This document shows, piece after piece, positions 3,217 to 53,656 of a stretch of DNA of 64,000 nt. Position 1 is the first letter of the stretch, and each line of letters begins with the position of its first letter. The stretch spans positions 206-64,205 of the forward strand of contig DAOUAI010000032.1 of assembly GCA_034433775.1 (NCBI GenBank), written 5' to 3'. Position numbers and translations under genes: made by a program. The notes under the pieces were generated by a model. The model saw only the letters and a program-made list of their open reading frames with translations. It was not told where the DNA came from and searched no databases. Origin of the DNA: Dehalococcoidia bacterium (lineage in GTDB: Bacteria > Chloroflexota > Dehalococcoidia > GIF9 > UBA5629).

Positions 3217-3651
3217 TTATGCCTCTTCCTTAACCTCGGCACTATTTGCAGAACCTTCGGCTAGTTCACTCTCACCTATAGCCACCTCTGAACCACCCCC
3301 CACGATCATCCTCTCTCGCCTTTCCTTCAGGCGTGACTCCCGGGCACTAAGTTTACGTATATAGTACAATTTAGCTCTACGCACCTTGCCACGACGCACT
3401 ACTTCTACTTTCTCCAAAAAGGGAGAGTTGAAAGGAAAAGTATGTTCTACCCCAACACCATAAGCAACCTTTCTGATGGTAAAACTGCCGCCTCCACCAC
3501 CACGCCTTACCCTGACAACAAGCCCTTGCAAGGTCTGAACTCGCTCACGGTTAGCTTCTTTAACTCTAACACCAACTCTGACCGTATCTCCGGGAACGAT
3601 CTCGGGTATACTGGAACCTGTTTTAGATTGTGTAAGAATGCTACTATCCAT
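3217..3651 (-). CDS. rplS: 50S ribosomal protein L19 with acidic C-terminal extension
   Basis: L19 core (VRVGVRVKE...RVQTLQGLVV...RKVAYGVGVE) directly downstream of trmD as in the conserved trmD-rplS pair; about 30 extra C-terminal residues. Confidence 0.9.
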   Translation of the reverse strand: MDSSILTQSKTGSSIPEIVPGDTVRVGVRVKEANRERVQTLQGLVVRVRRGGGGGSFTIRKVAYGVGVEHTFPFNSPFLEKVEVVRRGKVRRAKLYYIRKLSARESRLKERRERMIVGGGSEVAIGESELAEGSANSAEVKEEA

Positions 3652-5965: not shown

Positions 5966-6927
5966 TGAGTTTAACCATCATGCTACCAACCCATAGACCG
6001 GTAATGTTAAATGAGGTTATAGAAGCGCTGCAGGTCGAAGCCGGGAAACGTTATGTGGACTGCACGCTTGGCTCAGGAGGACATGCTGAAGCGATCCTTA
6101 AAAGAATTATGCCTTACGGGCAACTCCTCGGTATCGATACTGATATCGAAGCTATCAACCTTGTCAGAAGTAGACTTGCAAACTACGCAGGGTCCATGAT
6201 AATAGTGCACGATAACTTTGCCAACCTCAGTGCTATTTGCAAGGAAAACAATTTTTTGCCAGTGCATGGCATTCTCATCGACCTCGGTGTCTCTACAACA
6301 CAATTAGATGTACCGGATCGGGGTTTCAGCTTCCGCTACGATGCCTGCTTGGACATGCGTTTTAATAGGGCAGAAAGATTAACGGCCGCTGACATTGTAA
6401 ACACCTTCTCCGAAGAAGAACTAAATCATCTGATCCGCACATACGGAGAGGAAAGATATAGCCGACAGATAGCGCGTAATATTGTCAAGAACCGCCCTAT
6501 AGTCAGCACACTCCATCTGGCACGCGTTGTAGAACAAGTTACCGGTCACCGCCGTGGCAGAATCCATCCTGCAACCAAGACTTTTCTAGCACTACGCATC
6601 GCTGTTAATCACGAACTGGAAAACCTGGCCGCAGTCTTAAAACAAGCTGTGGAATGCCTTGAATCTGGCGGACGGTTGGTCGTTATTAGTTATCACTCCC
6701 TTGAAGACCGAATCGTAAAGCAATTTATAAATCGAGAAAGCAAGGGGTGTATCTGTCCGCCTGGAACCCCAGTCTGCCAATGTAACCATGTGCCCAGATT
6801 AAAAATAATATCAAAGAAGCCTGTTAGACCTTCTAGCAATGAAATCGGGGCTAACCCTAGGAGTCGCAGTGCTAAACTCAGAATAGCAGAACGCATTAAT
6901 ATTCAGCAGGAGGCTAACCAGTCTTAG
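5965..6927 (+). CDS. rsmH: 16S rRNA (cytosine1402-N4)-methyltransferase RsmH/MraW
   Basis: HRPVMLNEVIEAL, DCTLGSGGHAEAIL SAM-binding motif; start overlaps mraZ stop. Confidence 0.9.
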   Translation: MSLTIMLPTHRPVMLNEVIEALQVEAGKRYVDCTLGSGGHAEAILKRIMPYGQLLGIDTDIEAINLVRSRLANYAGSMIIVHDNFANLSAICKENNFLPVHGILIDLGVSTTQLDVPDRGFSFRYDACLDMRFNRAERLTAADIVNTFSEEELNHLIRTYGEERYSRQIARNIVKNRPIVSTLHLARVVEQVTGHRRGRIHPATKTFLALRIAVNHELENLAAVLKQAVECLESGGRLVVISYHSLEDRIVKQFINRESKGCICPPGTPVCQCNHVPRLKIISKKPVRPSSNEIGANPRSRSAKLRIAERINIQQEANQS

Positions 6928-9307: not shown

Positions 9308-9330
9308 CCCCCAGTCACCCCCTCCCCAAC

Positions 9331-9364
9331 AGAGCGGCAACTTAAAGTTGCCGCTCTGTTTTTA
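9331..9364 (+). terminator. rho-independent terminator after ftsZ
   Basis: Perfect 11-bp stem AGAGCGGCAAC/GTTGCCGCTCT with 5-nt loop, followed by GTTTTT. Confidence 0.7.
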
Positions 9365-9378
9365 AATTCAACTTCGAG

Positions 9379-9407
9379 TTGACAATATCTATATATTGGG
9401 TTATAAT
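9379..9407 (+). promoter_or_regulatory. sigma70-like promoter of nrdR-nrdJ with an AT-rich imperfect palindrome (candidate NrdR box) in the spacer
   Basis: TTGACA 9379-9384, 17-nt spacer, TATAAT 9402-9407; CAATATCTATATATTG at 9383-9398. Confidence 0.4.
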
Positions 9408-9437: not shown

Positions 9438-9992
9438 ATGAAGTGTCCCTATTGCGGTGATTCAGAGAGCAAGGTGATTGATTCCAGAGATGTAGGTGAT
9501 GGTATAAGGCGCCGCCGGCAATGTCTTCGTTGTCAGGCTCGATTCACCACATACGAGCAACCACAGCTACGCAACCTCTTCGTAATTAAAAAGGATGGCC
9601 GACGTGAGGAATTCAATCGTGATAAACTGCTTACCGGCGTCCGCAAAGCTTGCGAGAAGCGCCCACTACCCACAGGAAAAATCGACAAGCTGGTCGACGA
9701 CATTGAAGCTGAACTATACCGCCTCGGAAAAACAGAGATCCCTAGCTCCCTGATAGGAGACATGGTGATGGAAAGGTTGCATAACCTAGACCATATAGCC
9801 TATATTCGCTTTGCCAGTGTTTATCGCGAGTTTGCTGATATAGCCACACTAAAACAGGCAGTCGACACCTTGGTAGATACCAGGGCAAGAAGACCACCAG
9901 CTGGTCAATTGCCTTTATTACCGGAGGAAGAGTTAAAGTTTTCAGGGCACCGTCAACGCAGGCGAAGGCAAAATGATCAACCGTCAAAGTAA
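9438..9992 (+). CDS. nrdR: transcriptional repressor NrdR (zinc ribbon plus ATP-cone) with basic C-terminal tail
   Basis: MKCPYCGDSESKVIDSRD...RRRRQCLRCQARFTTYE zinc ribbon then ATP-cone; ATG 9438 preceded by AGGGGG; stop overlaps nrdJ start. Confidence 0.85.
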   Translation: MKCPYCGDSESKVIDSRDVGDGIRRRRQCLRCQARFTTYEQPQLRNLFVIKKDGRREEFNRDKLLTGVRKACEKRPLPTGKIDKLVDDIEAELYRLGKTEIPSSLIGDMVMERLHNLDHIAYIRFASVYREFADIATLKQAVDTLVDTRARRPPAGQLPLLPEEELKFSGHRQRRRRQNDQPSK

Positions 9993-12501
9993 GTTAAGCC
10001 CACAAGCTGCAACTAACCAAAACCGCATAGCCCGTGCTATTTTTGCAGCCGCGGAGGCTATGGGGATTACAGACAGGAAACTGCTGGAAGAGCTTACCGA
10101 TCAAGTTATACAAAGGCTAGAACCGAGACCTACTTTGCCAGGGATGGAGGATCTAGTGTCAAAACAGAGAAAACAAAGCCCCTCACACGCACAAATTAGA
10201 GATGCAGTCAAACAAGTCTTAGCAGGGAAAAAACAACAGACAACAGAGTCCCCACCCAGACTACTTGTCTCACAAGCACCCCCCGAGGCAGAAACAGGAT
10301 TGCACCTTTCTCAGAACGCATTGACTGTGCTTGAAAAAAGATACTTGAAAAGAGATAACCAAGGACAAGTTATCGAGACTCCCGAAGAAATGTTTCGCAG
10401 AGTGGCAAGACATATCGCCTCTGCGGAACTCAATTACGATCCTAAAGCCGATGTCAGCTTTTGGGAAGAGAAGTTTTACCAGCTTATGACCTCTTTGGAA
10501 TTCTTACCTAACTCCCCAACCCTTATGAACGCCGGTAGAGAACTCGGACAACTGTCTGCCTGTTTCGTCATTCCCGTCGATGATTCAATGGAATCCATAT
10601 TTGATGCTGTAAAATATACTGCTTTGATCCATAAAAGTGGTGGCGGCACCGGATTCTCCTTTTCCCGCTTGAGACCTAAAAATGACAGGGTGGGATCGAC
10701 TGGGGGCATCGCCAGCGGTCCAGTTTCTTTCATGCGAGCTTTTGACACGGCGACCGATGTTATTAAACAGGGGGGCATGCGTCGGGGGGCTAATATGGCT
10801 ATCTTAAACGTCGACCACCCCGATATTCTGGATTTCATTTTTGCCAAAGAAGACCCTAAAGCATTAACAAACTTTAACCTTTCAGTAGCCGTGACAGATA
10901 GCTTTATGCAAGCAGTGGAAAACGGAAAGGACTATGACCTGATAAATCCCCGAACCGGTGAGGCCACTGGCAAACTGAACGCTCAAGAAGTGTTTAGAAA
11001 GATTGCCGAAATGGCATGGCGGACCGGAGACCCTGGCATAGTCTTCATCGACACTATAAACAGGTACAACCCCACCCCTCATTTAGGAAGGATAGAAAGC
11101 ACCAACCCGTGCGGCGAACAGCCGCTGTTACCGTTTGAGTCCTGCAATCTCGGTTCTATAAACCTTTCTAAGATGGTCAAATACGAAAATGGTAATCCAG
11201 AGATTGACTTCGTTAAGCTGGGCGAGGTTATTAGACTCGGAGTACGCTTCCTCGACAATGTTATTGACGTCAACGAATTTCCATTACCTCAGATAGAAAG
11301 AATGACTAAGTCCACCAGAAAGATCGGACTCGGCGTAATGGGATTCGCTGATATGCTAATCAAGCTCTGTACCCCTTACAACTCTGAGGAGGCACTGCAA
11401 ATAGCAGAGAGACTCATGCGCTACATATCGGAAGAGGCAACCAAAGAATCTGTAAAACTGGGAATAGAACGGGGCGTGTTCCCTGCATTCAAGGGCAGCA
11501 TTTATGACACAGGCAATGGAATAAGACCGAGAAATGCCTCACGGACCACCATCGCCCCCACCGGTACGCTCAGCATAATTGCTAACTGTTCTAGTGGCAT
11601 TGAGCCACTTTTCGCACTCAGCTATACTCGTCATATCCTCGATGGCGCGGAACTCATCGAGGTTAACCCACATTTCGAAGCAATAGCTAAAAAAGAAGGC
11701 TTTTATTCACAGGAATTTATGGAGGGGCTGGCTAAAGGGAAACGGCTTAAGGATTTCGAAGGTATCCCCGGCTGGGTAAAAGAGGTTTTTGTCACCGCCC
11801 ATGATATTACCCCAGAATGGCACGTAAAGATGCAGGCAGCTTTCCAAAAATACACTGATAGTGCTGTCTCCAAGACAGTTAACTTGCCCCACGAGGCAAC
11901 GGTTGAAGATGTGGCAAAAGTGTTCCTGCTCGCTCACAAACTCGGTCTAAAAGGGATCACGATTTACCGCGACCGCAGTCGTGAAAGCCAGGTGCTGACA
12001 ACCGGTGATATTAAAGAACCTGCTTCCACAACACTGCTAAAACCAAGACATCGCCCTAAAGTTACTAAGGGGATCACTGAACGAGTGACGACAGGCTGTG
12101 GATACATATATGTTACGGTTAATTTCGATGAAAAGGGGATCTGTGAAGTATTTTCCAGCCTTGGCAAAGCAGGCGGCTGTGCGTCAGCACAACTAGAAGC
12201 TACCAGCAGGCTCATCTCCTTAGCCTTAAGATCGGGCATTGATACCGCTTCGATCACAAAACACCTCCGTGGTATCCGCTGTCCATCCGTTGCTTGGGAA
12301 GAAGGACGTGCTATCCTTTCATGTGCTGATGCTATCGCTAGTGTACTGGAGAAATATGTAAAAGACACAGGAACCGGTACTACTGACGATCAAGAAACGA
12401 CTAAGAACTGGGCAGGACAGTGTCCAGAGTGTGGGAATATCCTAATTTATCAAGAAGGTTGCCATATCTGTCCTAGCTGCGGCTACACTAAGTGCGGTTA
12501 G
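9973..12501 (+). CDS. nrdJ: adenosylcobalamin-dependent (class II) ribonucleotide reductase
   Basis: NPCGEQ active-site motif, thiyl-radical region, C-terminal CxxC...CxxC zinc ribbon; about 95-aa N-terminal region upstream of the canonical LTVLEKRYL start, so the true start may be downstream. Confidence 0.9.
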   Translation: MINRQSKLSPQAATNQNRIARAIFAAAEAMGITDRKLLEELTDQVIQRLEPRPTLPGMEDLVSKQRKQSPSHAQIRDAVKQVLAGKKQQTTESPPRLLVSQAPPEAETGLHLSQNALTVLEKRYLKRDNQGQVIETPEEMFRRVARHIASAELNYDPKADVSFWEEKFYQLMTSLEFLPNSPTLMNAGRELGQLSACFVIPVDDSMESIFDAVKYTALIHKSGGGTGFSFSRLRPKNDRVGSTGGIASGPVSFMRAFDTATDVIKQGGMRRGANMAILNVDHPDILDFIFAKEDPKALTNFNLSVAVTDSFMQAVENGKDYDLINPRTGEATGKLNAQEVFRKIAEMAWRTGDPGIVFIDTINRYNPTPHLGRIESTNPCGEQPLLPFESCNLGSINLSKMVKYENGNPEIDFVKLGEVIRLGVRFLDNVIDVNEFPLPQIERMTKSTRKIGLGVMGFADMLIKLCTPYNSEEALQIAERLMRYISEEATKESVKLGIERGVFPAFKGSIYDTGNGIRPRNASRTTIAPTGTLSIIANCSSGIEPLFALSYTRHILDGAELIEVNPHFEAIAKKEGFYSQEFMEGLAKGKRLKDFEGIPGWVKEVFVTAHDITPEWHVKMQAAFQKYTDSAVSKTVNLPHEATVEDVAKVFLLAHKLGLKGITIYRDRSRESQVLTTGDIKEPASTTLLKPRHRPKVTKGITERVTTGCGYIYVTVNFDEKGICEVFSSLGKAGGCASAQLEATSRLISLALRSGIDTASITKHLRGIRCPSVAWEEGRAILSCADAIASVLEKYVKDTGTGTTDDQETTKNWAGQCPECGNILIYQEGCHICPSCGYTKCG

Positions 12502-12513
12502 AGTCCTAAACAA

Positions 12514-13974
12514 TTGGAGGGGCATGTGGAAAACAGCGACCTCACTTTTTCCCAGGCTTTCAAACAGATAGCAAAAAGTGCAAACTCATCATTGCCACTA
12601 AGAAAAGCTCTGAACTCCATAGCCAAGAGCACCACTAAAGCCCTAAAGGCTACAGGCTGTACCATCATGCTCTTAAGCACACAAAGAGAACATCTGGACA
12701 TTGTAGCTGCCTTCGGTCTTAGCGATATGTACCTGAAAAAGGGAGCGCTAAATGCACGGAGGAGCCTCCACGAGGTTATGGAAGGAAAGATAATCTCAAT
12801 CTTCGATGCAAAAGAAGACCAACGGACTCAATATCCAGAAGCCGCAGGAATGGAAAGAATAAGCTCAATCCTAGCAGTTCCTATCCTACAGGGCGGAGAG
12901 GTAATCGGGCAAATTCGCATCTACACCCGCGAACCGACTCATTTTTCTCATGCTGAAAAAGACTTTGCATCAACAGTGGCCAATATAGTCTCCGTGGTAC
13001 TCGAAAAAGCCGAACTCCGCCAACTACTCAAGGACAAACATAAAGCAAGAGTAAGCAAAAGGCAGAGACTGGCTGAAGTCCCTAGATTACCGTCCTCATC
13101 ACTAAGGCCCTCTTCCTTTGGACATCCCAGTGAAGAAGAATTTGCCAAGCTGCTCGATTTTTACAGGATCGAATGGTTATACGAACCACGCTCTTTCCCT
13201 TTGTCATGGCAGGGCGGCAAGATAACAGAGATGTTTACCCCCGACTTTTATCTACCAGAATTGGACCTTTATATTGAACTCACAACTTTAAAACAAAGCC
13301 TGATCACAGAGAAGAACCGTAAAGTACGCCGCCTGCGTGAGCTTTACCCTGATATAAACATCAAACTTCTCACCAGAAACGATTATTTAAGACTATTAGC
13401 TAAATATGGCTACGGAAATCTAGGAGTTACAAAAGTACGAGGAATAGACCGTGTTCTTTTTAGCCATACGCAAATCCAGCGCCGTGTAAAAGCACTTGCG
13501 AAGCAAATTTCACGAGACTATGCTGGCAAGCAACTACTTTTAGTAGGTATCCTCAAGGGCGTTATTTGTTTCATGTCCGACCTTATGCAATATATATCAA
13601 TACCACTTGATATAGATTTTATGGCAATCTCATACTATGGCACCGACGCTGAAACAGTTGTGAAAATAACCAAGGATCTTACTACAAGCATTTCCGGACT
13701 GGATGTCATAATGGTAGAAGATATTGTAGATACAGGAATGACACTCAACTATGTGCTGGGGCACCTCACTTCATACAAACCAGCCAGCTTGCGCGTATGC
13801 ACCCTGCTAGACAAGCGAGTACGTCGCTTGGTCGATGTGCCACTACACTACATCGGTTTTGAAATCCCGGATGAGTTTGTAGTAGGTTACGGACTGGACT
13901 TCCGCGGAGAATACAGAAACCTGCCATTTATCGGCGTACTCAGTCCAGAGCTAACTGAAGAAAGACGAAAATGA
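12514..13974 (+). CDS. three-domain fusion: GAF sensor domain, DUF559/Vsr-like endonuclease-fold domain, hypoxanthine-guanine phosphoribosyltransferase
   Basis: N-terminal GAF fold (about aa 1-170); middle FTPDFYLPELDLYIELTT region resembling DUF559 (VDF...IELDG); C-terminal PRTase with VEDIVDTGMTL PRPP loop. ORF begins with TTG 12514; GTG 12526 five nt after GGAGG is the more likely start. Confidence 0.7.
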   Translation: MEGHVENSDLTFSQAFKQIAKSANSSLPLRKALNSIAKSTTKALKATGCTIMLLSTQREHLDIVAAFGLSDMYLKKGALNARRSLHEVMEGKIISIFDAKEDQRTQYPEAAGMERISSILAVPILQGGEVIGQIRIYTREPTHFSHAEKDFASTVANIVSVVLEKAELRQLLKDKHKARVSKRQRLAEVPRLPSSSLRPSSFGHPSEEEFAKLLDFYRIEWLYEPRSFPLSWQGGKITEMFTPDFYLPELDLYIELTTLKQSLITEKNRKVRRLRELYPDINIKLLTRNDYLRLLAKYGYGNLGVTKVRGIDRVLFSHTQIQRRVKALAKQISRDYAGKQLLLVGILKGVICFMSDLMQYISIPLDIDFMAISYYGTDAETVVKITKDLTTSISGLDVIMVEDIVDTGMTLNYVLGHLTSYKPASLRVCTLLDKRVRRLVDVPLHYIGFEIPDEFVVGYGLDFRGEYRNLPFIGVLSPELTEERRK

Positions 13975-13976
13975 GT

Positions 13977-14076
13977 TGCCCCAAGTAACCTCACCTTCCC
14001 GGCTCCACAATCCAACGCTTTTCGGCCTTCGCCTACCTTGCGTCAGTGCCTCACCGCTTCAGGCTTGACTACTTGG
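13977..14076 (+). terminator. long structured 3' region ending in a hairpin and T-tract
   Basis: TGCCCCAAGT (13977-13986) pairs with ACTTGGGGCA (14061-14070) around a 74-nt internally structured loop, then TTTTTT 14071-14076. Confidence 0.45.
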
Positions 14077-14214
14077 GGCATTTTTTAATATAACACACCT
14101 GAAACACTTTGTCAAGACCCTCTACTAGACTGCTCACTCCCACACGCGGTATAATGGGAGTCACTAAGTCGTTAGCTACCTTAATCTTTAATTCCTAAAA
14201 CAGGAGGAATACCG

Positions 14215-15511: not shown

Positions 15512-15961
15512 ATGGCAAAACTGAAAGCTCACTTAATGCCCATTGGAATAGTAAGAAACAAACTTGAAGAGCCAGGACAAAGGAGGTGGCAGAAAGTTAT
15601 CTCCGAAATAATCGTCGACAAGAAACTAGAAACAGCACTGGATGGCGTAGAAGAGTTCTCCCATCTCATAATTGTTTATTGGATGCATAAACTGCCCCAA
15701 AGGCAACAACCGCCAATAAAAGTGCATCCTCGAGGTGAGGACTCATTACCGCTAGTCGGAGTATTTGCCAGCCGGAGCCCAAGCCGCCCCAACCCGATAG
15801 GTATAACAGTAGTAAAGTTGCTTGAGCGCCAGGGAAATATCCTTAAAGTTGCAGGGCTTGACGCGATTAATGGAACACCATTGCTTGACATTAAGCCGTA
15901 CATCCCGTCCCATGATTCAATCAAAAATGCGGTAGTCCCAGAATGGCTTGAACCTAAATAG
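15512..15961 (+). CDS. tRNA m6t6A37 methyltransferase TsaA/TrmO (YaeB family)
   Basis: GVFASRSPSRPNPIG and DGTPLLDIKPY motifs of the UPF0066 beta-barrel family. Confidence 0.8.
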   Translation: MAKLKAHLMPIGIVRNKLEEPGQRRWQKVISEIIVDKKLETALDGVEEFSHLIIVYWMHKLPQRQQPPIKVHPRGEDSLPLVGVFASRSPSRPNPIGITVVKLLERQGNILKVAGLDAINGTPLLDIKPYIPSHDSIKNAVVPEWLEPK

Positions 15962-16023
15962 CCTGCCTATTAAAAAACAAACTTTGACACTGATAATAAA
16001 AAGCAGTTTAATATAAGCACAAA

Positions 16024-16098
16024 GCGGGTGTAATTCAGCGGCAGAATGCTTGCTTCCCAAGCAAGACGTCGGGAGTTCGAATCTCCTCACCCGCTCCA
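16024..16098 (+). tRNA. tRNA-Gly(CCC)
   Basis: Hand-folded cloverleaf: acceptor GCGGGTG/CACCCGC, anticodon loop TTCCCAA, T-loop TTCGAAT, 3' CCA encoded. Confidence 0.85.
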
Positions 16099-16119
16099 CA
16101 ATATTCCTGAGCTAGTAAA

Positions 16120-35240: not shown

Positions 35241-35313
35241 TAGGCCGTGCAGGAATCGAACCTGCGACACCCTGATTAAAAGTCAGGTGCTCTACCGACT
35301 GAGCTAACGGCCC
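35241..35313 (-). tRNA. tRNA-Lys(TTT)
   Basis: Hand-folded: acceptor GGGCCGT, anticodon loop CTTTTAA, T-loop TTCGATT; no encoded CCA. Confidence 0.85.
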
Positions 35314-47826: not shown

Positions 47827-47899
47827 AGCCCACAACCAGATTCGAACTGGTGACCCCGTTCTTACCAAGAACGTGCTCTACCTGCTGAGCTATGTGGGC
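47827..47899 (-). tRNA. tRNA-Thr(GGT)
   Basis: Hand-folded: acceptor GCCCACA/TGTGGGC, anticodon loop TTGGTAA, T-loop TTCGAAT. Confidence 0.85.
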
Positions 47900-47984
47900 A
47901 ACTAATTACGTTATCCCTTTTCAGGGTTACCAAAATTTTTATCAGATTATACACTATTTTAATAAACTCTCCAAGATTTGCAAG

Positions 47985-48070
47985 TGGTGGAGGGGGTAGG
48001 ATTCGAACCTACGCAGCCTTCAGGCGGCAGATTTACAGTCTGCTCCGATTGTCCACTCCGGCACCCCTCC
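47985..48070 (-). tRNA. tRNA-Tyr(GTA), long variable arm, CCA encoded
   Basis: Acceptor GGAGGGG/CCCCTCC, anticodon loop CTGTAAA, long variable arm, T-loop TTCGAAT; close resemblance to E. coli tyrT. Confidence 0.85.
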
Positions 48071-48085
48071 CAGACAATACACGAT

Positions 48086-48158
48086 AGCCCGAGAGGGGAG
48101 TCGAACCCGCTAACCTACCGATTACAAGTCGGTTGCGCTACCATTGCGCCACTCGGGC
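48086..48158 (-). tRNA. tRNA-Thr(TGT)
   Basis: Acceptor GCCCGAG/CTCGGGC, anticodon loop CTTGTAA, T-loop TTCGACT; one C-C mismatch in the T-stem. Confidence 0.7.
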
Positions 48159-48330
48159 AAACAAGCTTAGCACTCTGGCTTCGCCTTGAACTATGCTCAA
48201 TTTCAGGCTCTTAGTATAAATAAAGAGAAGAGTAAAAGTCAAACTAAGCGAGGCATTTTACTCTCAGGTGATAAGGTCTTGTCTGTTATCTAAGGTGTGT
48301 CTTCTTCACCTTGAATGATAACAACCTCAG

Positions 48331-48957
48331 CTATTCGACCCCAGCACCTGAAACAAGCCTTTGACCGGCAATAAAAGCCTCGTCCAATGCTGCTGGATAT
48401 CGCAGAATGGCCCCCTTCTCATCAATCCCGGAAAAGGTTACCTCACCAGCATAGTCCACATCTAGAGTCGCGAACAAGCTCTTCACCGTCGCTATCGCTG
48501 GCCGGAACAGGTTGTGTACCTTCCTCCCACCCACCGAAACGAACAGTCCACTACGTTCCTTACCCGAGGGAATAGACACCGGCAGCTTGAGGACATACTT
48601 TACAACCCAGAGCGCCTGGCAGCGGTCAATCATAGCCTTAGTCTGAGCTGTCAGCCCCATGAAGAAAATCGGTGACGCTAATACGATACGATCTGCTTCC
48701 CTTAAATCAACGTGCAACCACTGCATATCATCATTTACAACACATTTGCCTGTGTTCAAACAACCATCACAATGCCGGCAAGGAGCAATGTCCAGCTCAC
48801 TAAGCACAACAGTCTTGACCTTAGCTCCCTGTTCAGCAGCACCAGCCATTACACGCTGAAGGAGAACATCCGTATTGCCATTACGCCGGGGGCTACCAGC
48901 TATACCCAGAACCTTTATATTTCGGACTACCTCTTTCTTTTCCTTGTTATTAAACAT
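48331..48957 (-). CDS. iron-sulfur flavoprotein (Isf) / NADPH-dependent FMN reductase family
   Basis: KVLGIAGSPRRNGNTDVL flavodoxin-like start plus compact Cys motif CRHCDGCLNTGKC; start ATG 48957. Confidence 0.75.
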   Translation of the reverse strand: MFNNKEKKEVVRNIKVLGIAGSPRRNGNTDVLLQRVMAGAAEQGAKVKTVVLSELDIAPCRHCDGCLNTGKCVVNDDMQWLHVDLREADRIVLASPIFFMGLTAQTKAMIDRCQALWVVKYVLKLPVSIPSGKERSGLFVSVGGRKVHNLFRPAIATVKSLFATLDVDYAGEVTFSGIDEKGAILRYPAALDEAFIAGQRLVSGAGVE

Positions 48958-49226
48958 TCTGTGTTCACCTGAATACAGTAACAAACAAAACTTTCTGCTC
49001 CTCATTCGGGACACTCATGCTGGGACAGACTGCCACAAAATGCATTAAGGTGACACAACTCATTATACTTTAGCAACACAACGATTATCTAATCATCGCC
49101 CGCAAAACACGAAAACAGAAATGGCAAAGCCGGTCCGGCACAATATATTTTGCAGGCAACAGCACAAATAGGCTAAAATTAAAAGCACTTTTTATTTTAT
49201 CAAACCGAAACCCAGCGAGGGAGAAA

Positions 49227-49928
49227 ATGATAAAGGACAAAATACTACAACAAGCCAGGAAAGAAAAAAGAACACTGCTCACCGAGATCGAATCCAAAGA
49301 CCTTCTAGAAGAGGCTGGGATACCTGTTGCCAAGGCTAAGTTAGCACGGACAAGGTCCCAAGCAATTTCCTTAAGCAAAGAGATGGGGTTCCCTGTGGCA
49401 CTGAAAATCGTTTCACCTGATGTAATCCATAAAAGCGATTCCGGTGGTGTCAAACTTGGACTTCGCAATGCAACCCAAGTTAGCAAAGCTTACAGTGACA
49501 TACTTTCCTCAGTGAAACAGCGCCATCCTGATGCAAGAATTTATGGTGTCTCAGTCCAGAAGATGGCTCGCCCGGGGATAGAAGTTATAATCGGCATGAC
49601 AAAAGATGCACAATTTGGCCCAGTGCTGATGTTCGGACTCGGTGGAATCCTAGTCGAGGTTCTAAAGGATGTTGCTTTCAGAATAGTACCACTCACAAAA
49701 AGAGATGCCAGAGAAATGATAAAAGAGATAAAAGGCTACCCGCTGCTCCAGGGTTACAGAGGACAAGAGCCTGCGGATATTGCTTTCCTTGAAGAATTGC
49801 TGATAAAAGTCTCCAACTTTATCGAGAAAAACCCTGAGATAAAAGAGTTGGACCTCAATCCCGTTTTCGCTTATAGAAGCGGAGCAGTAGCGGTGGATGC
49901 CCGGGTGATTCTGGAACCTTTTTCATAA
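49227..49928 (+). CDS. ATP-grasp domain protein, ADP-forming acetyl-CoA synthetase beta / succinyl-CoA ligase beta-like
   Basis: LLEEAGIPV, ALKIVSPDVIHKSDSGGVKLGL, IEVIIGM ATP-grasp pattern; no alpha (CoA-binding) partner in the window. Confidence 0.65.
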   Translation: MIKDKILQQARKEKRTLLTEIESKDLLEEAGIPVAKAKLARTRSQAISLSKEMGFPVALKIVSPDVIHKSDSGGVKLGLRNATQVSKAYSDILSSVKQRHPDARIYGVSVQKMARPGIEVIIGMTKDAQFGPVLMFGLGGILVEVLKDVAFRIVPLTKRDAREMIKEIKGYPLLQGYRGQEPADIAFLEELLIKVSNFIEKNPEIKELDLNPVFAYRSGAVAVDARVILEPFS

Positions 49929-50002
49929 TCACCTTCAAGCTTGGATACACAAAAACTCGCGCTTGAACACCACCCGTAAGATACCCTGCCTTGCCTAAAA
50001 TA

Positions 50003-50038
50003 GCTTAATTGCAGCTAAAGACAAAACTGCAATTAAGC
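50003..50038. terminator. perfect 12-bp stem-loop between convergent transcripts
   Basis: GCTTAATTGCAG ... CTGCAATTAAGC with 12-nt loop; U-rich run follows on the minus strand only. Confidence 0.4.
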
Positions 50039-50096
50039 ACACTCTATCAGCAAGGTAAATAAAGAGGTTAGCAGGGAAATTAGTCTTTAAATAAAA

Positions 50097-50170
50097 CGAC
50101 CCCGATGGGATTCGAACCCACGATCTCCACCGTGACAGGGTGGCATGTTAGTCCGCTACACTACGGGGCC
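50097..50170 (-). tRNA. tRNA-Asp(GTC)
   Basis: Acceptor GGCCCCG/CGGGGTC (one G-U), anticodon loop CTGTCAC, T-loop TTCGAAT, discriminator G. Confidence 0.8.
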
Positions 50171-50640
50171 ACGCTCTATGAGAAAGCTCTACTATAAGGG
50201 CAACAGCCCTTAAAATCTAGAAGTAAGTCTACCAACACTACATCAGAAGTGTCAAGGATTGTACTCGTCCAGTACACCAGTGACACATATTCTCAATTGT
50301 TTAATGGAAAGCTGCAGCTAGATTCCCCTTACCTGTCCTCTCCCGCAAGGGGGAAAGGGATAAAAAGGTAGCTCTCCCACAGAGGTGAGAGGACTTTTCT
50401 CCATTGATAGGAGAATTCTTCCTTCTCTCCTCCCTTGACGAGAAAGCTCTTCCTTCCTCCTCTCTTTTGGCGGGAGAGGACTAAGGTGAGGGTGAAATAA
50501 AGCAGCCGGTGTCCTTCCCGTTTCTGCTACGTCCTGTGTCGTCCATCTATCTGAACGAGATCAGGAATCCCCAGCTCTTCAGAATTAGCTCGTGCCAGCT
50601 TGACAGTTATTCGAAACGTCTGTTACCATGAATTGACAAA

Positions 50641-50713
50641 GGGGATATAGCTCAATAGGGAGAGCACTGCGTTCGCATCGCAGGGGTCGGGGGTTCGAAT
50701 CCCCCTATCTCCA
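50641..50713 (+). tRNA. tRNA-Ala(CGC)
   Basis: Acceptor GGGGATA/TATCTCC with G3:U70 alanine identity pair, anticodon loop TTCGCAT, T-stem GGGGG/CCCCC. Confidence 0.8.
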
Positions 50714-50968
50714 TTTAATTTCAATAGAGCTAACAGGGAAATTTTGGCAACCTTATTTAATAGCTCGGCCCCATTGAGAATCTTATCCAAGACATCATTT
50801 TTCTGAAAGTTAACTTAGCCCGCTAGGTTTACACACGTGCTACAACCGTACGATACTCCTCGGTATCTCTAGAAGCACATTCAATGCAGTCCTGCTCGCC
50901 AGAAGGATAGAGACTTGCAAAATATGATTGATATGCGCATCTGATTATTTCTGCTAAAATAGTGTTCA

Positions 50969-53656
50969 TTGAAGAGGGAAATGGTAACAGGTAATTATAC
51001 TGAGCTGGATAAAAGCATATTTGCCGCTATAAAAACACTAAGCAAGAAAGTAGACCGCTCTTTCACCACACAGCAGATCGCTGATTTAGCATTATGTGAA
51101 CTTCAAAAAATAATGCCCGGGGTAGACTGCTGGATACTAATTATCGACCGAGATCAAAAGATGCCTTCTCTTATCGCACATCATAGCTTAAATACAGGGA
51201 CAATAGAAAGAATAGTCGACGACAAAACAACCAAAAGCATCATCTCCCAAACCATCGCATCAGCACAACCTGTGGTTATATCTAACCTGCTTGCCGCGCA
51301 GAAATACAACGAAAGGCTGGTTCAGTCTGGATATCTTTCCTTCGCCAGCATTCCAATTAAAGCAGCAAACAGGATAATAGGCATTTTAGGACTTGCTTCG
51401 AACATCGAGTCCAGAATTACAACTCAAGAAATAGAAGTGCTTGACACATTCGTTTACTTCCTTGCAACTATCCTCGAGAAATCACTCATCCAACAACGAA
51501 ACCAAGAGAATGAGAAAACTCTGGCTTTAGTCAACAACTTGACCAAGATCATCACTTCAAGCCTGAATTTAAATGAGGTATATGAATGGTTTGCAGAGGA
51601 ATTAAGAAAAATTATGGATGTCGATTGGGCAAGTATTGTAATCATAGAGGGAGATAAGCTGAGATTTTACGCTATGTCCTCAAAAATAGACTCCGCCTGG
51701 CAGACAGGAGATGTTGTGCCACTCGCTGGGACAGCTACAGAATACGTAGCTACAACGAAAAAACCATTTATAGAACCCGACTTGGCGAAGAAAAGGAAAT
51801 TCTGGACAGGAAAGTACCACCTGGAACGCGGTGTAAGGTCAATAGTCTATTTACCTTTACTGGCAGCAGGTGAAGCCTTCGGAGCACTGATCATCGCCAG
51901 CCATCGTCCCCGCGCTTATGGAGAAAAGGAGCTAAACCTGTTAAGAAATGTCGTGGGTCAAATAGCGCTACCCATTAGAAACACACGGCTATTTGAGGAA
52001 GCGGAACAAAAAAGACAACTCCTCGCTTCGATTGCCCGTGTAACCAAGACCATAGTCTCAGATATAGATTTTAGCAAGGTTTTCCAGAGCTTCACTGAAG
52101 AGCTACAAAAGTTAGTGCATTTCGACTGGGCCTCCATAACAGTGGTCGAAGGAGATCGAGTAAAGTTTTTGGTCACATCACACGATGCGCCAGCAGAGCT
52201 ACAAACCGGCAAGACCCGCCCGCTTAAAAACTCGATAACAGGCCTGGTATTGAAGGAAAAGAGAACCATCATCCAGACTGACACAGCCGAGGACCGATTA
52301 TCACCTGTTGATGAAATTAAATTCAGCGCAGGTTCTAGGTCCTCTATCCATATTCCCCTATACGGTAAAGGAGAGGTGTTTGGGAGCTTGAACCTCTTCA
52401 GTTATAAACAAAACGCCTACGGCGAAAAAGAAAGAGAAATACTGGAACAACTTGCAAATCAGATAGCGGGAGCTATTTGGAGCGCTCAGCTTTACGCCAA
52501 AACCGAGCAACAAGCACGAACAGATGAGCTTACAGGATTGTACAACCGCCGTTACTTCGAGGAGTGCCTTAACCGTGAGATTGGACGCCATTCTCGATAC
52601 GGTGGCATTTTGTCATTAGTCATCTTAGACCTTGATTCGTTCAAAACCTACAATGACATTCGGGGGCACCTTGCAGGCGATAAAATACTCAGCCGAATAG
52701 GACAACTAATAAAAAGAACGATCAGAAATATCGACCTAGCTTTTCGCTATGGCGGCGATGAGTTTGCACTCATCTTGCCACAAACAGGGATAGAACAAGC
52801 TTACGTGGTGGCTGAGCGTGTACGCAGACAAATCAGCAACAAAATGTGGGCTAAGCAACTTTTATTCACTGCCAGTTTTGGACTAGCCACATGGCCAGGT
52901 GATGGCACAACTGCTGACGAACTATGCAATGCTGCTGACCAGGCGCTGTATTACGCCAAAAGGACTGGCGGAAACCGAATACAAGTGGCGGCGAAGACCC
53001 TCCTGACTTCGACGGATAGCCATTTAACCACCGGGACTACAGCAGAAAAAGGTATCCTGAGCATTATCCATGCTTTAGCCGCTGCCGTCGAAGCCAGAGA
53101 CATCTATACCCATGGTCACTCACAGAGGGTCCGTGATTACGCTATAGCTTTAGCCGAAGCACTGGGTTTGCCCACTGACAGGACAATCAACTTAAGCACC
53201 GCAGCTCTGCTACACGATATAGGTAAAATCGGCATCCCCGATGAGCTGCTTAGAAAAAACGATAAAATGACTGCCGAGCAATGGGAGATTATCCAGTCAC
53301 ACACAAAGCTGGCAGCCGCGATAGTTGGGCGCATACCTAGCCTGACCCCTTGTCTACCCGCTATACTTCACCACCACGAAAGATGGGACGGTAAGGGTTA
53401 TCCCACAGGACTCCAGGGTGAAGCCATTCCGCTAGAAGCCCGCATTCTAGCTATCGCTGATGCCTTTGAAGCTATGACAGCCTCTAGACCCTACCACCAG
53501 CCTATGCCACTCAGTCGAGCAATAGAGGAACTGAAGCGCAACTCTGGTACTCAATTCGACCCCAAGCTAGTCGAGGTCTTTCTAAATATCGTACCTGAAC
53601 TTTCCACCAAGTCTGCACGACAAAGACCCCATAGCGAAGAACGTATCAGACTATAA
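50969..53656 (+). CDS. multidomain c-di-GMP signalling protein: tandem GAF domains, GGDEF diguanylate cyclase, HD-GYP phosphodiesterase
   Basis: Three GAF-like repeats (DWASIVIIEGD..., DWASITVVEGD...), RYGGDEF (intact GGDEF), HD-GYP motifs HDIGKIGIP and HHHERWDGKGYP; 895 aa. Confidence 0.85.
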   Translation: MKREMVTGNYTELDKSIFAAIKTLSKKVDRSFTTQQIADLALCELQKIMPGVDCWILIIDRDQKMPSLIAHHSLNTGTIERIVDDKTTKSIISQTIASAQPVVISNLLAAQKYNERLVQSGYLSFASIPIKAANRIIGILGLASNIESRITTQEIEVLDTFVYFLATILEKSLIQQRNQENEKTLALVNNLTKIITSSLNLNEVYEWFAEELRKIMDVDWASIVIIEGDKLRFYAMSSKIDSAWQTGDVVPLAGTATEYVATTKKPFIEPDLAKKRKFWTGKYHLERGVRSIVYLPLLAAGEAFGALIIASHRPRAYGEKELNLLRNVVGQIALPIRNTRLFEEAEQKRQLLASIARVTKTIVSDIDFSKVFQSFTEELQKLVHFDWASITVVEGDRVKFLVTSHDAPAELQTGKTRPLKNSITGLVLKEKRTIIQTDTAEDRLSPVDEIKFSAGSRSSIHIPLYGKGEVFGSLNLFSYKQNAYGEKEREILEQLANQIAGAIWSAQLYAKTEQQARTDELTGLYNRRYFEECLNREIGRHSRYGGILSLVILDLDSFKTYNDIRGHLAGDKILSRIGQLIKRTIRNIDLAFRYGGDEFALILPQTGIEQAYVVAERVRRQISNKMWAKQLLFTASFGLATWPGDGTTADELCNAADQALYYAKRTGGNRIQVAAKTLLTSTDSHLTTGTTAEKGILSIIHALAAAVEARDIYTHGHSQRVRDYAIALAEALGLPTDRTINLSTAALLHDIGKIGIPDELLRKNDKMTAEQWEIIQSHTKLAAAIVGRIPSLTPCLPAILHHHERWDGKGYPTGLQGEAIPLEARILAIADAFEAMTASRPYHQPMPLSRAIEELKRNSGTQFDPKLVEVFLNIVPELSTKSARQRPHSEERIRL

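Follow-up and report, generated by a model that had tools for sequence, protein, structure and literature searches.

An endonuclease I-like domain as a dedicated partner of hypoxanthine phosphoribosyltransferase in Dehalococcoidia and other bacteria

Hypoxanthine phosphoribosyltransferases (Hpt or HPRT; NCBIfam family TIGR01203, with solved structures 1r3u, 2geb, 3o7m and 1g9s) are known as stand-alone proteins of about 180 amino acids (aa). Phosphoribosyltransferase (PRT) folds also serve regulators: PyrR is a uracil phosphoribosyltransferase that also binds RNA. Likewise, in PurR of Bacillus a PRT-fold domain with affinity for phosphoribosyl pyrophosphate (PRPP) and (p)ppGpp is attached to a DNA-binding one (PMC8789054), and the regulation of HPRT itself by (p)ppGpp and oligomeric state is an active topic (PMC6783271). 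Here we describe a gene from a stretch of 64,000 nucleotides (nt) of contig DAOUAI010000032.1, from a Dehalococcoidia bacterium, the whole of which we call the window. The product of this gene carries, ahead of a complete HPRT, about 310 extra N-terminal residues that form a GAF domain and a further domain, designated here X. Our main result is that X is a dedicated partner of HPRT, either fused to it or encoded directly upstream of hpt. HPRT is among the best-studied salvage enzymes, yet this partner of about 100 residues, which is more conserved than HPRT, seems to be undiscussed in the literature.

The GAF domain, X and the complete HPRT lie in one uninterrupted open reading frame (ORF; positions 12514–13974, plus strand). 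The original prediction gave the product 486 aa, counted from the TTG at 12514; as judged from the sequence, translation almost certainly begins instead at GTG 12526, in the same frame, since this codon fits both the spacing from a GGAGG motif and the N-termini and lengths of the homologs (108 of the 120 closest are of 482–483 aa, and those inspected start with M/V-ENSDL). The length is thus corrected to 482 aa. Residue numbers used here are those of the 486-aa ORF, from which 4 should be subtracted for the 482-aa protein.

Over its last 170 residues the protein aligns with the solved enzyme 1r3u from one end to the other (E = 1.2e-56), and the score against TIGR01203 (HGPRTase) was 196.3 bits, over an equivalog cut-off of 150; likewise, Pfam Pribosyltran (PF00156) matched residues 318–463 with 94.4 bits (cut-off 26.3). 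All substrate and PRPP motifs are intact relative to 1r3u, namely the LKG turn, the SYYG loop, VEDIVDTGMTL, LLDK and FVVGYGLD..YRNLP. The segments FVVGYGLDFRGEYRNLP, SYYG, LLDK and VEDIVDTGMTL match 1r3u in every alignment column and show little or no variation among 51 full-length orthologs, in whose alignment residues 402–411 of the PRPP loop are invariant. They supply the acidic pair and D-T/S-G-x-T of the PRPP loop, the Ser-Tyr of loop II, the Lys that follows strand 5 and the C-terminal F-V-x-G-Y-G-L-D...Y-R motif; the functional roles of these residues are those that we presume from known HPRT structures. The claim of a canonical HPRT with an intact PRPP loop was therefore confirmed. We found no second hpt within the 64-kb window, and the gene is best read, from its sequence, as the housekeeping HPRT of the organism in a three-module form that is typical of its lineage. 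Many homologs bear the JGI name 'TilS/HprT', which, like the protein from the window, designates an HPRT with a long N-terminal extension. However, no TilS or PP-loop ATPase domain was detected in the window protein, whose extension consists of GAF and X, and the label appears to be a mis-annotation transferred through similarity of the HPRT part.

Full-length homologs were found in more than 120 protein clusters, with 72–96% identity and 97–100% length coverage (94% in one case), and 43 species genomes share this GAF-X-HPRT frame. The original prediction was right in placing three domains in a single polypeptide, as seen from the uninterrupted ORF, the Pfam and NCBIfam matches and the conserved full-length homologs, whereas its view of the architecture as unusual did not hold: a large clade of Dehalococcoidia has GAF-X-HPRT as its standard HPRT, so that the protein is ordinary for its lineage, and it is already in the databases as 'hypoxanthine phosphoribosyltransferase' or, wrongly, as 'TilS/HprT'; members of the wider X family bear these names or simply 'hypothetical protein'. 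A faulty assembly or a frameshift uniting three separate genes might be suspected from the occurrence of stand-alone X and separate hpt genes in other lineages, and from a relative (locus L001) in which the X and hpt gene calls overlap, possibly through a frameshift. We give this explanation practically no credence, because the uninterrupted frame recurs in those clusters, which come from independent assemblies, and in the 43 genomes, and because the domain junctions are conserved, with all-pairs identities among the 51 orthologs of 78% for the linker and 68% for the X-HPRT junction. As a separate observation, a second HPRT-like frame, cut by the end of the locus, starts 4 nt after the GAF-X-HPRT gene in locus L028 (5856–6197) and could be a tandem duplicate of hpt.

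A search with X alone retrieved 2,954 proteins; the 120 matches listed were all of 110–203 aa and showed 61–76% identity to the segment. Among 1.84 billion representatives, the X profile matched 3,933 clusters (at 50% identity) with E ≤ 1e-3, and 448 with E ≤ 1e-30, and a scan of one genome per species located X in at least 595 species of Chloroflexota, Dormibacterota, Methylomirabilota and other groups. In the loci described here, all found by searching with X, HPRT of Chloroflexota and neighbouring phyla appears always to be accompanied by X, as a fused domain or through translational coupling. Within the best 80 loci from these (at least 595) species, X was fused in frame to HPRT in 79 and lay directly upstream in one. 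The GAF-X-HPRT arrangement accounts for 43 of them, in records titled Dehalococcoidia, Dehalococcoidales, Chloroflexia or Chloroflexi/Chloroflexota, and X-HPRT without GAF for 36, from Dehalococcoidia, Dormibacterota, Thermomicrobia/Sphaerobacter, Limnocylindrales and Chloroflexia; in the last, from Methylomirabilota, a separate hpt directly follows X. Cultured carriers include Dehalococcoides mccartyi, Thermomicrobium roseum, Sphaerobacter thermophilus and Halanaerobium hydrogeniformans.

The stand-alone X gene encodes about 120 aa and its stop codon overlaps, or nearly abuts, the start of hpt; on long contigs it directly precedes an hpt of about 157–193 aa. In total, X, alone or preceded by a cytidylate-kinase-like domain, was found directly upstream of hpt in eight independent contexts, with gaps of 5–126 nt beyond the cases of overlap (e.g., a gap of 24 nt in L002, an Anaerolineae locus with an X of 122 aa and an Hpt of 179 aa, a gap of 5 nt in L093, and overlaps of 4 nt in L092 and L094). 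The genes around these eight contexts are unrelated from one to the next, and no conserved neighbours other than hpt were found across lineages. The N-terminal partner of X, in turn, varies with the lineage, and can be none, GAF or a cytidylate-kinase-like P-loop domain. The latter corresponds to Cytidylate_kin2 (PF13189), an uncharacterised P-loop kinase-like family, and was fused N-terminally to X in 8 of the 10 proteins scanned in a first batch and 3 of the 10 scanned in another, as well as in L086; this fusion stands directly upstream of hpt in L087 (1024–2016), L091 (5001–6221) and L086 (2276–3343). A fission/fusion pattern of this type across lineages is a classical signature, from which we infer that X and HPRT work as one physical unit.

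Our literature searches on GAF-HPRT and on the combination of a phosphoribosyltransferase with an endonuclease fold returned nothing relevant, and in the literature searched we found no publication on the X-HPRT link, the extreme conservation of X, the invariant change of Lys to Thr described below, or the swappable sensor modules. In the same literature, PF13189 is mentioned by a single work, a study on DolP (preprint and eLife paper, once per version), on an unrelated topic.

The single exception to adjacency is a gcvH/FHA/MerR/hpt/BFN-nuclease/MerR/X/gcvP(T) cluster, where hpt is two genes away from X. This cluster occurs in one lineage (L005 and L006, with X at 6001–6342 and 3298–3639, respectively, after the second MerR gene) and resembles the mycobacterial garA-Rv1828-Rv1830 region. 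In L096 (6001–6948), MerR and X form one gene call of 315 aa; this contig has fragmented genes, so we downgraded MerR-X as a solid architecture, and the fusion may be an assembly indel. A typical Chloroflexota X-HPRT locus also appeared in a metagenome-assembled genome labeled Sphingomonadaceae (L052, JBLNDL010000094.1), which is probably a binning contaminant and not a proteobacterial occurrence.

Basic stretches precede X in several loci (L067, L070, L072, L073 and L077, about 190–300 aa before X; L055, L066, L068 and L083). Some Dehalococcoidia have long Arg/Lys-rich, RGG-like tandem repeats before X-HPRT (KPKRRRGSRGGRRHKK..., SRSGRGRRGRGGRQTD...), and in Dormibacterota there is a conserved basic peptide, WRRPVRQRSRLVRRSGP, just before X. 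These tails are lineage-specific, and we rejected them as a general trait of the family: the stretches before X have a mean net charge close to zero, and only 16% of them reach +3 or more.

The identity of X was examined at the levels of sequence and fold. The original prediction had described the middle domain as resembling DUF559/Vsr, without the usual His. With a Pfam scan of the segment at E ≤ 10 we obtained only Phage_endo_I (PF05367), and neither DUF559 nor Vsr; the same was the sole match for five stand-alone X homologs, and X matched nothing in NCBIfam. The Phage_endo_I scores are below the gathering threshold of 29.1 bits, both for the protein from the window (14.5 bits, E = 0.028) and for the best homolog (P0140, 25.1 bits, E = 1.6e-5), and neither Pfam nor NCBIfam has an entry dedicated to the X family. 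However, a profile built from 58 members of X matched, in the whole PDB, only chains of T7 endonuclease I, with E-values from 3.8e-5 to 0.012 (3cae was the best, at 3.8e-5, followed by 2pfj, 1m0d and 1fzr). Additionally, X matched the endonuclease and Holliday-junction-resolvase families of PHROGs (E = 6e-8 to 8e-6), and tblastn searches against phages retrieved proteins annotated as endodeoxyribonuclease I from T7-like Pelagibacter phages, with around 29–33% identity. The AlphaFold2 model of X (mean predicted local distance difference test, pLDDT, 83.4) displays a PD-(D/E)XK fold, with the alpha-beta-beta-beta-alpha-beta core of restriction endonuclease-like proteins. A Foldseek comparison of this model with the PDB gave only weak matches (E ≥ 0.012), probably because the chains of T7 endonuclease I are domain-swapped.

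T7 endonuclease I (gene 3) is thus the sole relative of X detectable by sequence. The two share the order of motifs (F..SE in helix 1, TPDF, a hydrophobic residue followed by Glu on strand 3, a basic helix and a conserved Pro), and they differ in that the phage protein is a junction resolvase, whereas X is cellular, housekeeping and tied to hpt, reaches only sub-threshold Pfam scores and has about 30% identity to the phage enzymes. By sequence, X is a cellular offshoot of the endonuclease I lineage and not a member of DUF559. Therefore, the likeness to Vsr/DUF559 (PF04480) in the original prediction stands for the fold and falls for family membership, which we rejected. The missing Vsr histidine was correctly noted, as no His is conserved beyond the third strand, and the sole nearly invariant His of X is H204, in FAHPSE before helix 1; conversely, X has a Glu/Asp/Glu triad that Vsr lacks. 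The fold assignment has a precedent in Steczkiewicz et al. (2012; PMC3424549, table entry 54), where proteins of Dehalococcoides and Thermomicrobium were grouped with the endonuclease I family, with no mention of HPRT for these proteins.

Sequence variation in the putative active site of X is very limited. Residues E207, D244, E255, T257, T258, K267, K270 and R272 are invariant in the family alignment; the first three correspond to the metal ligands E20, D55 and E65 of T7 endonuclease I and are placed on the model as expected for the triad, in helix 1, at the start of a strand and in the next strand. The basic helix (KNRK.R) is also kept, with K267, K270 and R272 on the helix that follows E-x-T. 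Conversely, the catalytic Lys67 of the phage enzyme is replaced by Thr in all 409 distinct X sequences, of which 406 have E-x-T-T, and Lys or Arg occupies position E+5 in 390 of the 409 (95%). The solved junction complex of T7 endonuclease I, 2pfj, has Ala at the position of Lys67, and we take it to be the inactive K67A mutant, still binding junction DNA. The comparison suggests that X keeps a metal- and phosphate-binding site without the canonical general-base or electrostatic Lys, the loss of which makes catalysis by X doubtful.

These residues bear directly on the idea that X is a working nuclease, or a structure-specific module for binding nucleic acids, that ties purine salvage to the degradation or processing of DNA or RNA. 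In that case HPRT would recycle the released purines, and the kinase-like or GAF module ahead of X would work on the resulting nucleotides or sense them. The invariant triad and basic helix speak for it, the basic residue at E+5 may stand for the canonical Lys, and the fusion of X to a cytidylate-kinase-like domain, of the nucleoside monophosphate kinase type, would fit, as would the Arg-rich repeats of several Dehalococcoidia and the basic peptide of Dormibacterota. T7 endonuclease I, moreover, helps to break down host DNA, which supplies the phage with nucleotides. Even so, we consider this reading rather unlikely: the Thr at the catalytic Lys position has no exception, in a place where the junction complex carries Ala, and the basic tails are not general. 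Besides, endonucleases yield oligonucleotides and not free bases, so that further enzymes would be required between X and HPRT, and these are not consistently found nearby.

X is also the domain that appears to be under the strongest constraint. Among the 51 full-length orthologs, X had the highest all-pairs identity (90.6%), followed by HPRT (85.1%) and GAF (72.0%), and in 82 of 84 loci similarity to the query was higher for X than for HPRT (on average, 70 versus 62%), a gap that is exaggerated by the selection of these loci by their similarity to X. Identity of X across phyla is 60–75%, and identity to the query falls gradually from the closest Dehalococcoidia to other phyla, with one copy per locus. 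Conservation above that of HPRT, even with this selection bias, clearly argues that X is neither a decayed relic nor a passive linker.

The N-terminal GAF domain, as originally predicted, was recognized by two Pfam families above their gathering thresholds in residues 29–164 (PF01590, 40.4 bits versus 22.4; PF13185, 40.6 versus 28.6). Its nearest relatives are GAF domains of the PtsP type (EI-Ntr; PDB 3ci6 and 3trc) and of NifA, which sense metabolites such as 2-oxoglutarate and glutamine and not cyclic nucleotides. In the literature on phosphodiesterase and cyclase GAF domains, an NKFDE-type motif is the mark of those that bind cyclic nucleotides, and we did not find such a motif (N[KR]..D[ED]-like) in residues 1–190. 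With these relatives and without this motif, cAMP and cGMP, which had been proposed among the candidate ligands, are unlikely ligands of this GAF domain. An AlphaFold2 model of the full-length protein (pLDDT 62.5; predicted template modeling score, pTM, 0.40) was too poor for domain packing, because the alignment of orthologs, with at least 72% identity, is too shallow. In this model the GAF part is confident (pLDDT around 75–90) and the linker part is not; a single helix of 40 residues (146–185) is predicted to run from GAF towards X, recalling the long exit helix of dimeric GAF signaling proteins, and the linker at around residues 183–200 is basic, with a net charge of +7. Elsewhere in the window, an ORF of about 900 aa (50963–53653, plus strand) shows weak similarity to the GAF query in multiple segments (whole-sequence E = 5e-7) and may encode a multi-GAF signaling protein.

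The reading that we prefer is an allosterically gated purine salvage, which is plausible, and we give about an even chance to its specific form, in which X is a dimeric regulatory hub for HPRT with metabolite input through GAF. Its ancient, conserved core is the pair formed by HPRT and X, the latter derived from the T7 endonuclease I family, to which the lineages have added interchangeable ligand-binding modules N-terminal of X (none, GAF or P-loop kinase-like). X would contact HPRT, in cis when fused and in trans when the genes are split, would dimerize by analogy with T7 endonuclease I, and would bind Mg2+ and a phosphate-bearing ligand; the dimer could then bring together a pair of HPRT domains and control how active they are or how they oligomerize, while GAF would pass a metabolite signal to the hub through its long exit helix. 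An effect on oligomeric state would be relevant because this state controls the sensitivity of HPRT to (p)ppGpp in other bacteria (PMC6783271). In the closest clade, co-transcription with nrdR and nrdJ would mean that purine salvage is expressed together with the synthesis of deoxynucleotides. The identities of the domains, the conserved motifs, the linkage of X and hpt, the range of N-terminal modules and the operon layout are shown by our data; we infer the contact between X and HPRT, the dimerization, the allosteric control and the identity of every ligand.

Several points weigh against a regulatory hub. No computed result places X on HPRT or points to an effect on its activity, the full-length model being poor as indicated, and the exaggerated X-HPRT gap in conservation tempers the argument from constraint. 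Likewise, X-HPRT is no more than a candidate for the sole HPRT of these genomes. The invariant acidic triad exceeds what a pure scaffold would need, which favors catalysis or metal-dependent ligand binding by X, and the Lys or Arg at E+5 could replace the missing catalytic Lys. Finally, the RGG-like N-terminal repeats of some lineages and the adjacency of MerR are hints of nucleic-acid binding.

A tentative possibility, to which we give clearly less than an even chance, is that X is a previously unrecognized, obligatory partner that adds to HPRT a second, nucleic-acid-linked activity in Chloroflexota, Dormibacterota, Methylomirabilota and their relatives. This activity could be one that binds or cleaves structured DNA or RNA with the help of Mg and under the control of purine/PRPP status, or else a role similar to that of PurR; if so, HPRT would be part of a sensor-effector unit in those phyla. 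The second option, a moonlighting regulator in which a disabled nuclease binds DNA or RNA and the PRT domain reads the level of PRPP, a purine or (p)ppGpp so as to control purine genes, has precedents in PyrR and PurR (PMC8789054), and both the loss of the catalytic Lys with retention of the rest of the site, which would allow binding without cutting, and the MerR-type helix-turn-helix gene that adjoins, or is fused with, X in one lineage agree with it. The likeness to PurR and PyrR is, however, conceptual, a PRT-fold domain next to a module of nucleic-acid-binding lineage with PRPP or (p)ppGpp as the signal: their nucleic-acid modules are not homologous to X, and the PRT domain described here is a bona fide HPRT that passes the equivalog cut-off and looks fully competent, unlike the inactive, degenerate sensor domain of PurR. 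Moreover, operator-specific DNA-binding domains are seldom as similar between phyla as X is, neither a conserved RNA element nor a riboswitch turned up around the loci, and the MerR-X fusion may be an assembly error. A regulator of this type is, in consequence, improbable in our estimation.

Resolving the function of X would explain a conserved gene pair and correct a widespread annotation. It might also uncover a new form of regulation of purine salvage in bacteria that, like Dehalococcoidia, grow slowly and depend on salvage, or else a PD-(D/E)XK fold put to a new use other than as a nuclease. The series of split and fused forms (X and hpt as separate genes, X-HPRT, GAF-X-HPRT, and cytidylate-kinase-like-X with a separate hpt) provides natural constructs for experiments.

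In the window, the gene follows nrdR and nrdJ, and the domain matches confirm the identity of both neighbors, NrdR and ribonucleotide reductase, as originally predicted (Table 1). The reductase gene ends 24 nt before the GTG start. The three genes look, from their sequence, like one operon, because they are bounded by a terminator and a promoter upstream and by a terminator-like stem downstream; the promoter is a likely candidate to drive the whole nrdR-nrdJ-hpt unit. The downstream stem has z = -3.17, with none of 200 shuffled sequences folding as well, and contains a terminator-like site at 14056–14079 followed by ATTTTTT; it is an unusual element, with an outer stem of 10–11 bp (GCCCCAAGUA/UACUUGGGGC) that encloses about 80 nt with inner hairpins. 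Of 41 GAF-X-HPRT loci, 22 have the nrdR-nrdJ-hpt order, and these all belong to the closest clade; neither the more distant GAF-X-HPRT loci nor any locus with X-HPRT or a stand-alone X shows it. The synteny is therefore an arrangement at the level of a clade and not a property of the family; the proposed fit with the dNTP-related context is borne out only in part, by the single promoter-to-terminator unit of the window, and does not extend beyond that clade.

A further suggestion was that GAF-X-HPRT is a signal-activated anti-phage defense effector. The order of sensor, nuclease fold and PRTase superficially resembles such effectors, and PADLOC gave matches to PD-(D/E)XK candidates (PDC-S69, E = 8.6e-4, 17 bits); these are far too weak, at noise level, and span about 50 residues around the PD..E motif. 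Conversely, the gene belongs to a housekeeping ftsA-ftsZ-nrdR-nrdJ block with synteny across 22 genomes, its neighbors in other lineages are clpXP-tig, ftsEX, tatAC-nusB and similar genes, so that housekeeping neighbors were seen in all loci examined, and its GC content is native (44.6%, versus 47.2% for the window). With one copy per locus, a gradual fall in identity and an HPRT of equivalog level, a defense role is hardly credible and largely refuted.

Table 1. Features of the GAF-X-HPRT gene and its surroundings in the window.
Feature	Position	Strand	Details and basis
Terminator after ftsZ	9328-9360		15-bp stem
Sigma-70-type promoter	9379..9407	+	TTGACA-17-TATAAT, 12/12; consensus match only
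nrdR	9438..9992	+	Zn-ribbon and ATP-cone; start taken at MKCPYCG, downstream of the promoter
nrdJ, class II-type ribonucleotide reductase	9973..12501	+	Ribonuc_red_lgN, Ribonuc_red_lgC and TSCPD domains
Mechanical ORF	starts TTG 12514	+	486 aa
Putative Shine-Dalgarno GGAGG	12516..12520	+	5 nt before GTG start 12526; read from sequence
GAF-X-HPRT gene	12526..13974	+	482 aa + stop; homolog N-termini and lengths
GAF domain	12598..13005	+	residues 29-164; PF01590 and PF13185 above cut-offs
Predicted long helix leaving GAF, and basic linker	12949..13113	+	helix residues 146-185; linker ~183-200
Domain X, T7-endonuclease-I-like PD-(D/E)XK	13117..13416	+	residues 202-301; profile-PDB match, AlphaFold2 model
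E207 codon, Glu of first helix	13132..13134	+	invariant (E13 in segment numbering); corresponds to T7 endonuclease I E20
D244 codon, PDF motif	13243..13245	+	invariant; corresponds to T7 endonuclease I D55
E255-L256-T257-T258 codons	13276..13287	+	invariant Glu corresponds to T7 E65; Thr257 at the position of catalytic Lys67
HPRT domain	13453..13941	+	residues 314-476; TIGR01203, alignment to 1r3u
PRPP-binding loop VEDIVDTGMTL	13714..13746	+	residues 401-411; aligned to VEDIIDSGLTL of 1r3u
Terminator-like stem GCCCCAAGUA...UACUUGGGGC	13977..14087	+	inner hairpins, then T-run; minimum free energy -33.6 kcal/mol
Promoter-like site before homocitrate-synthase-like gene	14126-14155

An Rfam scan of the window and of the surroundings of X-hpt loci retrieved tRNAs only, and no riboswitch. 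A search for the NrdR-box consensus gave 12 matches, versus 7.9 expected by chance, with none at the operon promoter. The spacer of the nrdR promoter contains a palindrome, CAATAT-CTAT-ATATTG (6-4-6, positions 9382–9397), which does not match that consensus and may serve as an operator, whether for NrdR or for some other regulator. The window contains seven tRNA genes, five of them at 47827–50713 and the others at 16024–16095 and 35241–35313; the one at 16024–16095, on the plus strand, overlaps a spurious minus-strand ORF (15917–16099).

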